Source of the DNA: a virus
Virus record (IMG/VR): IMGVR_UViG_3300034988_000024
Strand: one strand, 5' to 3'
Length of the DNA: 64,000 nucleotides
The translations under genes were made by a program, and so were the position numbers. The stretch's first letter is position 1. Every line of letters starts with the position of its first letter. Positions 21,309 through 24,525 of this stretch are shown piece after piece. The notes beneath the pieces were generated by a model, which saw only the letters and a program-made list of their open reading frames with translations, had not been told where the DNA came from and ran no database searches.

Positions 21309-22139
21309 ATGAAGTTTAAATCCGCTCGGTATCCCGGCTGGTTTCGTAGAACGTCGCTTCCTGATCGTTACCGAGGACCCACTCCTCCCAAGCAATCTGC
21401 CAGTGTCATCGTTCCATTTGGAGGTGGACAGGCGTACCTGAGTCGACTGGCCAACTGTCTGCGTTCGGTGCGCTGGCAGGATTACGTGAACCACGGAAAC
21501 GTCGAGCTGATCCTTGTTTACTTGAATCGGGGTGACTCTTCTGAGGACGAAAGGCAGCAGCTCGCCTCGCTGGTGAGAGAGCACAACGTTCGTCTTGTCG
21601 AGGCGAACAAGACCTTCGGGCATTTTCCGCTGTGCTTGGCGAGGAACATGGGCGCCCGAGCAGCAAAAAACGATGCGCTCGTCTTCATCGATGCCGATAC
21701 GGTGTTAGATCCGGAGTTTCTCGCGCGTTCTCTGCGCAGGCCGGGAAAACTCGTCACCTGTTGGTTCTCCTACCTCCGGAAGAATCACAGTCCTGTGGAT
21801 AAGAAGGGGGGAGTGCGGGAGCTGGTCCCTCAGGGGAGAATCAGGCGCTATGCTTATGGAGGTGGAATCGTTGCGCCAAGGTCGGTTATTGAAGAGATTC
21901 GCGGCTTTGATGAGGTCTACGACAGGGCGTGGGGAGCTGACGACAACGACATCGTCGACCGGCTCATACAACACGGCCTTGAATGGCACAACCTCACCGT
22001 CAAGGAAAACATCGTCAACCTGCACCAGTTCCATCCGAGCTTCATCAACGAGAAGTCACCAGGGACGGTGGCTAACCGCAAACGTTATTATCAACTGCAA
22101 ACGGTGGTTCGAAACGAGAAGGGATGGGGTGAGCCGTGA
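21309..22139 (+). CDS. family-2 glycosyltransferase
   Basis: VIVPFGGG N-terminal Rossmann start, DxD motif FIDADT. Confidence 0.65.
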   Translation: MKFKSARYPGWFRRTSLPDRYRGPTPPKQSASVIVPFGGGQAYLSRLANCLRSVRWQDYVNHGNVELILVYLNRGDSSEDERQQLASLVREHNVRLVEANKTFGHFPLCLARNMGARAAKNDALVFIDADTVLDPEFLARSLRRPGKLVTCWFSYLRKNHSPVDKKGGVRELVPQGRIRRYAYGGGIVAPRSVIEEIRGFDEVYDRAWGADDNDIVDRLIQHGLEWHNLTVKENIVNLHQFHPSFINEKSPGTVANRKRYYQLQTVVRNEKGWGEP

Positions 22140-22678
22140 ACAAGGTTGTGGGGGTGGGTTGGGCAAAAACGGGAACAACGACACTGGGTGCATGTTGTAA
22201 GATTCTTGGATATCGTCACTATGGACACCAACTGAGCCTGCTTGGAAGGCCTGAACAGGCGATGTCGATCGCTCGCCGTTTTGATAGTTTCGATGATTGG
22301 CCGTGGGCTATCTATTACAAGGAGCTGGATATGCGCTTCCCTGGAAGCAAATTCATCCTGACGATTCGTGATAGCGCCCGGTGGCTCAGGAGCTATCACA
22401 ATGCAGTGTCCAAGCAGCCCGCTGCAAGATTGAGAGATCGGGAAAAGGCTCGGAGGGAGATTTACGGGTTCACCTACGCTGAAGCCACAGACGAGAAGCT
22501 CATCGCGCGTTTTGAGAGACACAACGCTGAGGTGAAGAAGTACTTCTCTGATCGTCCTGGGGACTTACTCGTTGTGAACTGGGAGGAAGGTGACGGCTGG
22601 GACCAGGTCTGTTCGTTCTTGGGGGAGCCGGTCCCGAAAAAGCCTTTCCCGCATGCAAATAGAGGGGTCTATAGCTGA
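22136..22678 (+). CDS. sulfotransferase-family protein (GTG start, GTGA overlap with the GT2 stop)
   Basis: P-loop-like 5'-PSB motif GWAKTGTTTL; size and pattern fit Sulfotransfer_3-like. Confidence 0.5.
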   Translation: MNKVVGVGWAKTGTTTLGACCKILGYRHYGHQLSLLGRPEQAMSIARRFDSFDDWPWAIYYKELDMRFPGSKFILTIRDSARWLRSYHNAVSKQPAARLRDREKARREIYGFTYAEATDEKLIARFERHNAEVKKYFSDRPGDLLVVNWEEGDGWDQVCSFLGEPVPKKPFPHANRGVYS

Positions 22679-23556
22679 CCCTTGAGCGCCTTCAGCAGAT
22701 CTTCAGCTTCAGCAATGTTCTGAGCCCAAAGAGCCCAATTGGTAGTGCCCTTGGCGCTGCGGCTTAGTTGGTTGATGTGAGAAAGGTTTGGGCGCTTGCC
22801 GAAAGCGTCGCTGCTGTAGCCGAGCAGGTTGAGCGAAAGCATCGTCCTGACGCATTTCTCGCACTTACCACAGTTGTAGGCGTTCCCCTGCCAGCAGACA
22901 CGTAAGAGGTTTCGCACGTAAGGTAGTTCAGCAACGACCCTGAGCTTTTCTGGTCGTGTGATAGGAGCGTCGTGGACAAATTCAAGTGTCTCTGTGCTCC
23001 ATAGCGGGTCGATGTGCGGGTGAGTCGAGCACTCCTGGGGGAAGGTCATCGTGTTCGAGGCAGGGATGTAGATCTTCTTGTGAGTTTCTTCCTTCGCGAG
23101 CCCGATAGAGGCCAGCGCAGGCCCGTGGCCGTACTTGTACCACGCGACGTGCTTGTCCAGTGTCTCCCGAAGATTGGAGTGGACGATAACTGGGGACTTT
23201 CCGAAATGGTCTGCGACCAGCCGGATCTTTTTGGTGACCTCATCCAAAACATTCTTTGTTATCCGACGCTCAAATCCGATGACGTAAATGAGGTCGTCGA
23301 TTTCGTCCAAGTGGGTGATCAGTGTATAGAAGGAGTCGACGCCAAGGGTGAAGAATGTCGCTACGCGCTCGCCGCCCTGCTCGTGAACTACAGGGGTAAA
23401 CCGGGACAGATCAACGTTGCTTCGAAGACCCCAGGTTCTGTAGGTATCGATAGCCCTCCTTGCTCCTTTGAGAAACTTAGCGCTGACCTCACCTGTTGCT
23501 TGAGGTAGCTTCCCCGTGAGAAGGTTGGCCGCGATCATGCTCTCTAAATGTGACAT
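22669..23556 (-). CDS. hypothetical protein (295 aa)
   Basis: ORF; CGKCEKC motif near the C-terminus. Confidence 0.5.
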   Translation of the reverse strand: MSHLESMIAANLLTGKLPQATGEVSAKFLKGARRAIDTYRTWGLRSNVDLSRFTPVVHEQGGERVATFFTLGVDSFYTLITHLDEIDDLIYVIGFERRITKNVLDEVTKKIRLVADHFGKSPVIVHSNLRETLDKHVAWYKYGHGPALASIGLAKEETHKKIYIPASNTMTFPQECSTHPHIDPLWSTETLEFVHDAPITRPEKLRVVAELPYVRNLLRVCWQGNAYNCGKCEKCVRTMLSLNLLGYSSDAFGKRPNLSHINQLSRSAKGTTNWALWAQNIAEAEDLLKALKGQL

Positions 23557-24238
23557 CGAACTGGCCCTTCATACGTGAGAGATAAATTGCCTTGTTTTTG
23601 AAGTAGTTGCCCCCGTAGAAGACAACCCGTTTCCCCAGCATGCACGCGACAATTGCGACGTGCAAGCGGTCAGTGTGAACCTCGCGGACTTTGTTGATGG
23701 CTTCGATAAAGGGGCTCGTGTTGTGGTAGGTCTCGCCCCACACGCTGATGTCGCGATTTCCCTTGGGGATCTTGAAGTGTCTGGCGCTCTCCTTGTCGGT
23801 CCTCATGAAGTGGCCGACGCCATCGCCCTCTTGCGGCTTGAGAGCGGGTGCGAGGTGGAATGCCATGTCTTGGTGATAGGTGGCGTCAGGACAGTAGAGA
23901 AGGCTGTCACGGTTGTCGCGGGCAAAGAAGTGGATTTTTGGGATATTGAACAGAGGGCTGCGGACGGCGTAGGTCGACGGAAGCACAATAACCTGCTTGG
24001 CCTTGGGCACCGAGGCGTTAACGAAGTGGCTATGGTTCCAGTTAGCGCACCAAGCGCCGCCACCGCCGAAGATAAAGGTGCCCGTCGCCTCCTTTGGCGG
24101 TCTGGTGATCTCCTCGTAGACGAGCCCGATGTCTTTGAAAAATCGAATTGTTCCCTGGCGAATGAGGGCGTCCCCAAGATTGCCAGGGTTCGCCATGTAG
24201 AGGCGAGGCTGGGGGCTTTTCAGGAGTAGGTCTCTCAT
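23489..24238 (-). CDS. polysaccharide pyruvyl transferase family protein (start trimmed to MRDLLL)
   Basis: N-terminal NPGNLGDALI and C-terminal HTDRLHVAIVACMLGK signatures. Confidence 0.55.
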   Translation of the reverse strand: MRDLLLKSPQPRLYMANPGNLGDALIRQGTIRFFKDIGLVYEEITRPPKEATGTFIFGGGGAWCANWNHSHFVNASVPKAKQVIVLPSTYAVRSPLFNIPKIHFFARDNRDSLLYCPDATYHQDMAFHLAPALKPQEGDGVGHFMRTDKESARHFKIPKGNRDISVWGETYHNTSPFIEAINKVREVHTDRLHVAIVACMLGKRVVFYGGNYFKNKAIYLSRMKGQFDVTFREHDRGQPSHGEATSSNR

Positions 24239-24525
24239 AGGTCTGGGAAGAATCTCAAGAAGACGGGGGTCTTCTCTCCATGATAGCCGCCCTCGATGTT
24301 GAACTCGAAGTGTTCGTGGGCTTCCTCGAAGGTTAATCCGTCTTCGATTAACTTCTCGATGATGAGATCCGTGGAGTATACGATCCTGTCGCCAGGCCCC
24401 GGAGTGTAGCAAAAACCGATGATGCAGGTGTCGAAGCCGTCAGCAGTGAGGACCGGCCCCATGTCTTTGAGTTGGCGCCGTATTTCCGCGACCTCTTCCT
24501 CGGTCTTCCTGCGAAGCTCTTTCAT
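24235..24525 (-). CDS. hypothetical protein (96 aa), ATGA-coupled to the pyruvyl transferase gene
   Basis: ORF. Confidence 0.5.
   Translation of the reverse strand: MKELRRKTEEEVAEIRRQLKDMGPVLTADGFDTCIIGFCYTPGPGDRIVYSTDLIIEKLIEDGLTFEEAHEHFEFNIEGGYHGEKTPVFLRFFPDL

Follow-up and report, generated by a model that had tools for sequence, protein, structure and literature searches.

A conserved phage cassette of predicted glycosyl-, sulfo- and ketal-pyruvyl transferases and a QueC-like PP-loop protein: a candidate set of glycan-tailoring enzymes

What might a phage do with neighboring genes whose predicted products transfer a sugar, a sulfate and a pyruvate? This question is raised by positions 21309 to 24525 of IMG/VR virus record IMGVR_UViG_3300034988_000024, which we analyzed as a stretch of 64,000 nucleotides (nt), referred to here as the window. 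We found that the interval contains four genes that are one conserved unit, predicted to encode a GT2-family glycosyltransferase (GT2), a sulfotransferase (ST), a QueC-like protein of an uncharacterized family (X) and a pyruvyl transferase (PvT). With moderate confidence, we read this cassette as a soluble, cytoplasmic set of glycan-tailoring enzymes whose acceptor would most likely be a glycan of the host envelope.

Layout and conservation of the cassette

The interval comprises five open reading frames (ORFs), two on the plus strand and three on the minus strand (Table 1), and not the three consecutive enzymes described in the first-pass annotation: gene X sits between ST and PvT and is part of the unit. 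The end of the interval at 24525 also takes in a 96-amino-acid (aa) ORF that is foreign to the cassette and is not found at the cassette in a sister clade of phage contigs. Convergent transcription had been described correctly, as the 3′ ends of ST and X share 10 nt (22669-22678). The GT2 stop and the ST start overlap by 4 nt, and PvT overlaps the start of X by 68 nt. The longest version of the PvT ORF begins at a TTG at 24412 (23489-24412). However, the ATG at 24238 shares its bases with the stop of the 96-aa ORF in an ATGA overlap, and the N-terminus that this ATG produces, MRDLLLKSPQPRLYMANPGN..., aligns with the starts of four homologues; this ATG is therefore the most likely start. A scan of 20900-25300 for promoters and terminators gave no signal above shuffled controls.

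The gene order, with GT2 and ST reading toward X and PvT, was the same in 8/8 related contigs (L001, L002/L003, L008/L009, L010/L011 and L097), which fall into two different flank contexts. L001, a contig of 290 kb, is syntenic with the window, including the genes for a vault-like protein and a PolB-type exonuclease, and L097 (25.6 kb) has the same cassette arrangement. An ST with 99% identity is encoded on a JGI contig of 123.6 kb. In the sister clade (L002/L003, L008/L009 and L010/L011), the flanks consist of a DNA methylase, a sigma factor and other ORFans, and the methylase, of the N6/N4 type, lies directly beside the PvT gene. The 4-nt junction of GT2 and ST is kept in all cassette copies, and ST and X overlap tail to tail everywhere, by 10 nt in the window, L001, L002, L010 and L097 and by 17 nt in L008. 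Because the encoded proteins match profiles and structures above curated thresholds and independent contigs repeat the gene order, we do not attribute the cassette to chance. The conserved convergent overlap leaves no space for a terminator between ST and X, an oddity that may matter for regulation. In the sister clade there are two tandem Sulfotransfer_4 paralogues, of the GWAKTGTT and GWPKTGTT types, which suggests two sulfation sites or two acceptors.

Modifications of this kind had been called rare in phages. In support of this, DNA and protein searches with the cassette did not turn up a relative of ST, X or PvT among 50,697 GenBank phage records, although the reach of this result is limited because BK049963, the published phage genome with a wbbY-wbbZ pair, is outside that collection. 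The claim does not hold without qualification, given that published pair and the sulfotransferase genes noted in marine phage genomes, the function of which was explicitly called unclear (PMC10580990).

Table 1. Locations of the cassette genes and of the other features discussed, in the window unless a contig or locus handle is given
Feature	Location	Strand	Length and basis
GT2 glycosyltransferase (predicted)	21309-22139	+	276 aa; Pfam Glycos_transf_2, Glyco_transf_7C
ST, Sulfotransfer_4 sulfotransferase (predicted to depend on 3′-phosphoadenosine 5′-phosphosulfate, PAPS)	22136-22678	+	180 aa; Pfam PF17784
Gene X, predicted QueC-like PP-loop ATP pyrophosphatase, uncharacterized family	22669-23556	-	295 aa; fold and motif
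PvT, WbbZ-like ketal-pyruvyl transferase (predicted to depend on phosphoenolpyruvate, PEP)	23489-24238	-	249 aa; Pfam PS_pyruv_trans
ORF matching PHROG 13182, a family with no assigned function	24235-24525	-	96 aa; 2.4e-20
Tandem Sulfotransfer_4 pair, sister clade	L002 10867-11927; L008 10869-11956; L010 7791-8851		
DDDD protein of cellular ST loci	L098 5156-5959; L099 6716-7540		~270 aa
Second, divergent GT-A-fold glycosyltransferase (predicted)	29713-30570	-	285 aa; AlphaFold and Foldseek
Twelve tRNA genes	779-6607	+	
FGE-sulfatase-domain protein	4116-5165	+	349 aa; 4.5e-32
Radical-SAM protein, maturase-like	6718-7617	+	~1e-21
tRNA, anticodon TTA	15716-15792	-	
Vault-like protein	18141-21095	+	984 aa; MVP_shoulder, Vault_3, Vault_4
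N6/N4 DNA methyltransferase	35490-36404	-	PHROG 67, 8e-50
Radical-SAM protein, weakly MoaA- or viperin-like	40844-41788	-	
Orotidine-5′-phosphate decarboxylase homologue	45225-46067	-	5.9e-44
ORF without Pfam or PHROG match	48274-51570	-	1098 aa
ORF without Pfam or PHROG match	54763-56793	-	676 aa

Protein families represented in the cassette

The glycosyltransferase, sulfotransferase and pyruvyl transferase classes proposed in the first-pass annotation were all borne out by profile matches above their cutoffs. GT2 matched Glycos_transf_2 (PF00535; 2.2e-11, 44.4 bits against a gathering cutoff of 23.3) and Glyco_transf_7C (1.8e-6, 28.0 bits, cutoff 23), with weak matches to CHGN and MftF, the mycofactocin peptide glycosyltransferase. 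Its DxD motif (D128-A129-D130) and a C-terminal WGxDDND motif of the beta-4-galactosyltransferase type (W208-D214) are invariant across five cassette copies. These features predict a sugar transferase of the GT2 family and GT-A type. None of the four cassette proteins contains a hydrophobic 19-residue segment that reaches a Kyte-Doolittle value of 1.6.

For ST, the class stood while the family changed: the match to Sulfotransfer_4 (PF17784; 5.6e-33, 115 bits against a cutoff of 22.8) spans profile positions 1-211 of 215, whereas the score for Sulfotransfer_3 (PF13469), the family named earlier, was 14 bits, under its cutoff of 27. ST aligns with PDB 9kf1 (9.9e-19) and with the Schistosoma oxamniquine sulfotransferase 4mua (2.5e-7), and both 9kf1 and SgdX2 match it better than the Schistosoma enzyme does. 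In the alignment with 9kf1, GVGWAKTGTT of ST is paired with GAGFGRTGT, and LTIRDSARW with LTVRDSERW; we take these two stretches of ST to be the PAPS-binding motifs, namely the 5′-phosphosulfate loop and the R-x-S region for the 3′-phosphate. The GWxKTGTT loop is present in 8/8 phage ST copies. As judged from its sequence, ST is a Sulfotransfer_4 sulfotransferase that is presumed to be PAPS-dependent.

PvT matched PS_pyruv_trans (PF04230) at 4.7e-8 (33.7 bits, cutoff 25.3) and, in a phmmer comparison, the sequence of the WbbZ structure 6X1L at 7.7e-25 over residues 3-223 of its 249. The motifs NPGNxGD, RTDxES and TDRLHVAI are common to PvT and WbbZ. In the pyruvyl transferase Pvg1p, a conserved aspartate and two arginines (D106, R217 and R337) have been proposed to bind sugar and PEP. 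We consider PvT to be a WbbZ-like ketal-pyruvyl transferase, presumably dependent on PEP. WbbZ itself is PEP-dependent and places a 3,4-pyruvate ketal onto the terminal beta-galactose of the Klebsiella O1 antigen, and its addition in vitro ended polymerization prematurely (PMC10629545).

Gene X had no Pfam match above cutoff, and its weak matches, to QueC, DUF6395 and the PHROG 'QueC-like' family (1.4e-4), were confined to the C-terminal part. Comparison of an X profile with PDB sequences returned noise alone, so that a structural comparison was needed. The AlphaFold model of X has a predicted local distance difference test score (pLDDT) of 92.8 and a Rossmann-like fold, as in QueC, TilS, LarE and TtuA, with QueC and Cap9 as the closest structural relatives. 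In an alignment of 38 sequences, F68, F69, G72, D74, S75, D183, W186, K204 and R219 were invariant, as were the cysteines at 221, 229, 232 and 235. Residues 70-75 are a putative PP-loop, which has the canonical sequence SGGVDS in 17/38 relatives and a leucine at position 71 in 13/38. Fold, putative PP-loop and four-cysteine (Cys4) site resemble those of the carboxylate-adenylating enzymes QueC, Cap9 and LarE, and members of the PP-loop superfamily adenylate a carboxylate or carbonyl oxygen that is then attacked by a nitrogen or sulfur nucleophile. X is thus predicted to be a PP-loop ATP pyrophosphatase that would use ATP and whose Cys4 site is like that of QueC.

X does not appear to be QueC. 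It resembles QueC and Cap9 in fold and Cys4 site but has only 13-15% identity to them in structural alignments, and it scored 13.5 bits, over a C-terminal stretch only, against a cutoff of 150.3 for the QueC model TIGR00364. A role in the deazaguanine pathway was judged unlikely, with no pathway genes in the window and no QueE match for either of its two radical S-adenosylmethionine (SAM) proteins among the NCBIfam matches returned. Because deazaguanine genes are absent from the surroundings of X and the gene is instead conserved alongside one for a polysaccharide pyruvyl transferase, its substrate probably differs from that of QueC.

Close relatives of X number approximately 22 (55-68% identity, ~295 aa), and over 100 cellular relatives are longer (~380-430 aa, 30-42% identity). 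They are named 'hypothetical' in every naming source, and we found no paper on the X family or on DUF6395. A profile scan of GTDB species genomes identified at least 557 relatives, and the best 80 include members from Acidobacteriota, Verrucomicrobiota, Planctomycetota, Kiritimatiellales, Lentisphaerae, Chloroflexota, Actinomycetota, Desulfobacterota, Gammaproteobacteria, Omnitrophota, Armatimonadota and Bathyarchaeia. In IMG/VR, single-sequence scans with X and ST found no relatives, while six distant homologues of X were recovered with a profile; at these six loci an iterated PvT search detected no pyruvyl transferase.

Cellular context, proposed reactions and candidate acceptors

In an attempt to narrow down the function of the cassette, we considered the genomic context of its cellular relatives. 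When the genes on either side of X at ~72 loci were classified by Pfam, PS_pyruv_trans ranked first (19/140; GT1-type and GT2 glycosyltransferases, 5 each), and among second neighbors its count fell to 6/132, equal to those of GT2 and ABC_tran. Using an iterated PvT hidden Markov model (HMM), we detected a pyruvyl transferase within 300 nt of X in 17/85 loci, from many phyla, and within 3 kb in 24/85. A genome typically holds only a few pyruvyl transferase genes at most, and the linkage of X to PvT is a very strong enrichment as judged against such general knowledge rather than a formal background. In the cultured Aliagarivorans marinus DSM 23064, the pair lies within a lipopolysaccharide (LPS)-core cluster with GT9 heptosyltransferases, a GT25 glycosyltransferase and an HldD-like epimerase, adjacent to kbl/tdh-like genes. 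In an Armatimonadota metagenome-assembled genome (MAG), X adjoins a GT2 gene and a PvT gene in a rhamnose/GT4 polysaccharide cluster. Brevibacterium sediminis FXJ8.269, also in culture, is another carrier of the X-PvT pair.

ST has many cellular relatives at ~50% identity, of which four loci were sampled. Two of the four adjoin PS_pyruv_trans genes, which, together with the nearly full-length match of PvT to WbbZ, bears out the earlier suggestion that sulfate and pyruvate are linked here through glycans. The Halochromatium roseum locus contains two Sulfotransfer_4 genes, two PvT genes, an acyltransferase, an ABC exporter, KdsA, KdsB and a Sulfotransfer_3 gene, and that of the rhizobium Allomesorhizobium camelthorni contains a Wzx-like flippase, a PvT and a Sulfotransfer_4 gene. 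Both loci resemble the phage cassette in having Sulfotransfer_4 beside PS_pyruv_trans, here in the company of flippase, ABC exporter or 3-deoxy-D-manno-octulosonate genes. Unlike the cassette, they have no X within 6 kb and include export and polymerization functions that are absent around it. None of the 85 X loci had a sulfotransferase within 10 kb when searched with the phage ST HMM. The pairing of PvT with X and that of PvT with Sulfotransfer_4 and a small glycosyltransferase thus occur separately in bacteria, and the phage cassette joins the two.

A further protein of the Halochromatium and Allomesorhizobium loci, ~270 aa in length and 60% identical between them, lies between or beside the Sulfotransfer_4 and PS_pyruv_trans genes (Table 1). 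It carries the motifs LTFIxPVRH and DDDD and belongs to no Pfam family. Judging by its motifs and location, it is probably an unrecognized GT-A family tied to sulfated, pyruvylated glycans. The 271-aa neighbor of the ST gene of Dongia is unrelated to these proteins.

In the order of reactions that we infer, GT2 would take a hexose from a host nucleotide sugar and attach it, probably in beta linkage, to a glycan terminus. PvT, being WbbZ-like, would cap this sugar with a pyruvate ketal derived from PEP, and ST would sulfate a free hydroxyl using host PAPS. X would use ATP to adenylate a carboxylate, for which the carboxylate of the pyruvate is the obvious candidate because of the linkage of X to PvT. 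Attack by an amine or ammonia on the adenylated carboxylate would then produce an amide, and a nitrile, in the manner of QueC, may also be formed. The likeliest acceptor would be an intermediate of a host envelope glycan at the cytoplasmic face of the membrane, such as O-antigen, LPS core, capsule or exopolysaccharide. Infected cells would show an altered, more charged surface, which may exclude superinfecting phages or keep progeny phage off cell debris. We favor an envelope-glycan acceptor because all informative cellular contexts are envelope-glycan loci and because there is a phage precedent: a functional wbbY-wbbZ pair, of a glycosyltransferase and a pyruvyltransferase, is located on the Caudovirales genome BK049963.1 (Kelly et al. 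2023, PMC10629545).

Several observations weigh against this interpretation. No lipid-carrier, flippase or export gene was found near the cassette in the window. The cassettes known to modify receptors are mostly carried by temperate phages, and there is no sign of lysogeny here. The Sulfotransfer_4 member for which we could establish a substrate, the Schistosoma oxamniquine sulfotransferase, modifies a small molecule, and two of the four sampled ST loci (Dongia and a metagenome contig) have no glycan context. The PP-loop of the window's X, TLGVDS, departs from the consensus SGGxDS. In cellular genomes, approximately two thirds of the X loci lack a PvT within 10 kb, so that X need not act on pyruvate, and no amidated pyruvate ketal is described in the pyruvylation review that we searched. 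Because of the last two points, our confidence that X acts on the pyruvate carboxylate is low. More generally, we raise only tentatively, as a somewhat unlikely possibility, that members of the X family and ketal-pyruvyltransferases together convert a sugar-borne pyruvate carboxylate into an amide, a nitrile or another conjugate, which would be a new glycan modification. On this reading, huge phages would have joined the two-enzyme cap to a glycosyltransferase and sulfotransferases in a portable cassette, with which the charges on a surface glycan would be rearranged in the course of infection.

Alternatively, the acceptor may be a phage protein, with virion proteins (capsid, tail or fibers) or the 984-aa vault-like protein being glycosylated, sulfated and pyruvylated; this might change the charge of the virion, shield it or tune adsorption. 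We regard this as a serious rival, albeit an unlikely one. Four soluble enzymes would be located in the cytoplasm, where virions assemble, and in both the window and L001 the cassette adjoins the gene for the large vault-like protein. The Glyco_transf_7C motif of GT2 and its weak resemblance to CHGN and MftF also count in favor of a protein acceptor, and phage-encoded GT2 enzymes are known to glycosylate capsid and tail proteins of mycobacteriophages. However, the sister-clade cassette adjoins the DNA methylase and sigma factor genes, with neither a vault-like nor a recognizable structural gene beside it, and cellular relatives of X, ST and PvT occur in LPS and polysaccharide loci. No structural protein was recognized in the window either. 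One could also suppose that the clustering is inherited synteny and that the enzymes have separate substrates, ST acting on a small metabolite and X in an unrelated ATP-dependent reaction. The small-molecule substrate of the Schistosoma enzyme would fit this, as would the lack of glycan neighbors at half of the sampled ST loci and at most X loci, but we find it quite improbable. Gene order, orientation and overlapping start/stop junctions are kept in two phage clades with different flanks, and because the junctions are conserved in both, unlinked functions are hard to reconcile with the data. In addition, the pairing of ST with PvT and that of X with PvT have each turned up independently at polysaccharide loci of cellular genomes.

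Hypermodification of phage DNA against host restriction, either through a glycosylated and decorated 5-hydroxymethyl-pyrimidine or through the action of X on a deazapurine carboxylate, strikes us as very improbable. The structural proximity of X to QueC and Cap9 and its weak match to the PHROG 'QueC-like' family could be cited for it, together with the N6/N4 methylase gene directly beside PvT in the sister clade. Two remote homologues of the protein encoded at 29713 (Table 1) weakly match a TET-associated glycosyltransferase family (E 0.001), and glycosylated and sulfated nucleotides are reported from phages, in work cited in PMC10829341. On the other hand, X falls far under the QueC cutoff, the NCBIfam matches returned for the two radical-SAM proteins do not include QueE, and no Pfam queD, folE, TGT/DpdA, TET or hydroxymethylase family was found in the window. 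Cellular X genes are tied to pyruvyl transferases and glycosyltransferases in envelope-glycan loci and not to DNA-modification genes, and PvT matches a polysaccharide enzyme over its full length.

Among the closest known systems is the wbbY-wbbZ pair of Klebsiella pneumoniae, which similarly combines a glycosyltransferase with a short soluble PEP-dependent pyruvyltransferase (PEP use being predicted for PvT), which caps a terminal beta-galactose, and is also found on a phage genome. There are differences. The glycosyltransferase of the window is a single small GT2 protein, whereas WbbY is a two-module polymerase, and the phage cassette further encodes one or two sulfotransferases as well as a predicted PP-loop ATPase. 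The carrier also differs, being tRNA-rich, probably huge and without detectable similarity to GenBank phages. Serotype conversion of the gtrABC type would be comparable in that phage genes alter a host surface glycan, and GT2 weakly matches a PHROG 'GtrB-like O-antigen conversion' family (E 0.0047). Gtr systems, however, rely on membrane proteins (the GtrA flippase and a GtrC-type periplasmic transferase), unlike the cassette proteins, and involve no sulfate, pyruvate or ATP-dependent step. Sulfate and pyruvate occur together on the O-antigen of Cobetia pacifica KMM 3878, which carries Gal-2,3-disulfate and Gal-3,4-pyruvate (PMC6801904).

Phage genes that edit glycans are thus already known from serotype conversion and from the phage wbbYZ pair, but among those that we found none combines sulfation, pyruvylation and an ATP-dependent step; no paper was found on phages, sulfotransferases and pyruvyl transferases combined. 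The cassette gives a phage sulfotransferase a defined and conserved set of partner enzymes, which makes it accessible to tests in vitro. The partnership of X and PvT across many phyla, including the cultured Aliagarivorans marinus strain, is the chief new lead and possibly points to a new sugar modification. Were the acceptor a host receptor glycan, the cassette would represent a new device for superinfection exclusion or receptor masking in huge phages.

The carrier phage and other content of the window

The first-pass annotation had also pointed to a glycosyltransferase-like gene at 29713, and structure prediction agrees with it. The encoded protein had no Pfam, NCBIfam or PHROG match. A word-indexed search found two relatives and an exhaustive HMMER search found 52, and 10 of 40 aligned homologues match Glycos_transf_2. 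A DDD motif (D96-D97-D98) is near-invariant. The AlphaFold (AF2) model (pLDDT 91.3) retrieved 489 PDB chains at E ≤ 1e-3 in Foldseek, with COLGALT1, WrtF, K4CP, RmlT and TarP at the top (E 1e-9 to 1e-7). Based on the model, we assign it to the GT-A-fold glycosyltransferases; it is unlinked to the cassette.

The substrates of the proposed reactions do not appear to be made by proteins encoded in the window. The first-pass annotation had raised a search for a PAPS synthesis gene; no APS (adenosine 5′-phosphosulfate) kinase, ATP sulfurylase or PAPS reductase family was found in Pfam scans that covered 82 further ORFs of the 64-kb window, and no nucleotide-sugar synthesis families were found in the Pfam scans of window ORFs. 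The host, or genome parts beyond the 64 kb, would therefore have to supply PAPS, PEP, ATP and the sugar donor. The window does encode a further sulfur- or sulfatase-associated fold alongside ST, in a protein with an FGE-sulfatase (formylglycine-generating-enzyme-like) domain and weak GldK/PorK- and EgtB-like NCBIfam matches. As for the radical-SAM proteins, one resembles SPASM/NirJ/AhbD-type maturases and the other is weakly similar to MoaA or viperin.

The window probably represents a very divergent, huge and uncultured phage. No capsid, terminase or other structural gene was recognized within its 64 kb. Two very large ORFs (1098 and 676 aa) have no Pfam or PHROG match, and most other tested ORFs of 285-465 aa likewise match no family; because large and mid-size ORFs mostly lack family matches, the lineage appears to be very far from described phages. 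Genes that were recognized encode an amidase with a peptidoglycan-binding domain, a single-stranded-DNA-binding protein, an HNH protein, a PolB-type exonuclease and a DNA methylase. The sole hint to the host is one protein of a related contig, which NCBI labels as belonging to a Planctomycetota MAG.

Directly upstream of the cassette lies the gene for the 984-aa protein with major vault protein (MVP) domains (MVP_shoulder at 6e-15, Vault_3 and Vault_4). Its only matches among GenBank phages are in the huge phages LR756500-LR756503, at 26-31% identity, and vault-like proteins in phages are unusual and unexplained. The 12 clustered tRNA genes comprise 3 for Arg, 2 for Met, 1 for Pro and 6 for Leu, and the separate tRNA with the anticodon TTA would read UAA. 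There was no sign of TAA recoding, as TAA ends 14/53 genes and reading it as sense lengthens ORFs least of the three stops. The N6/N4 DNA methyltransferase belongs to the same family as the one that adjoins the cassette in the sister clade, and the window also encodes a homologue of orotidine-5′-phosphate decarboxylase, which is uncommon among phage genes.

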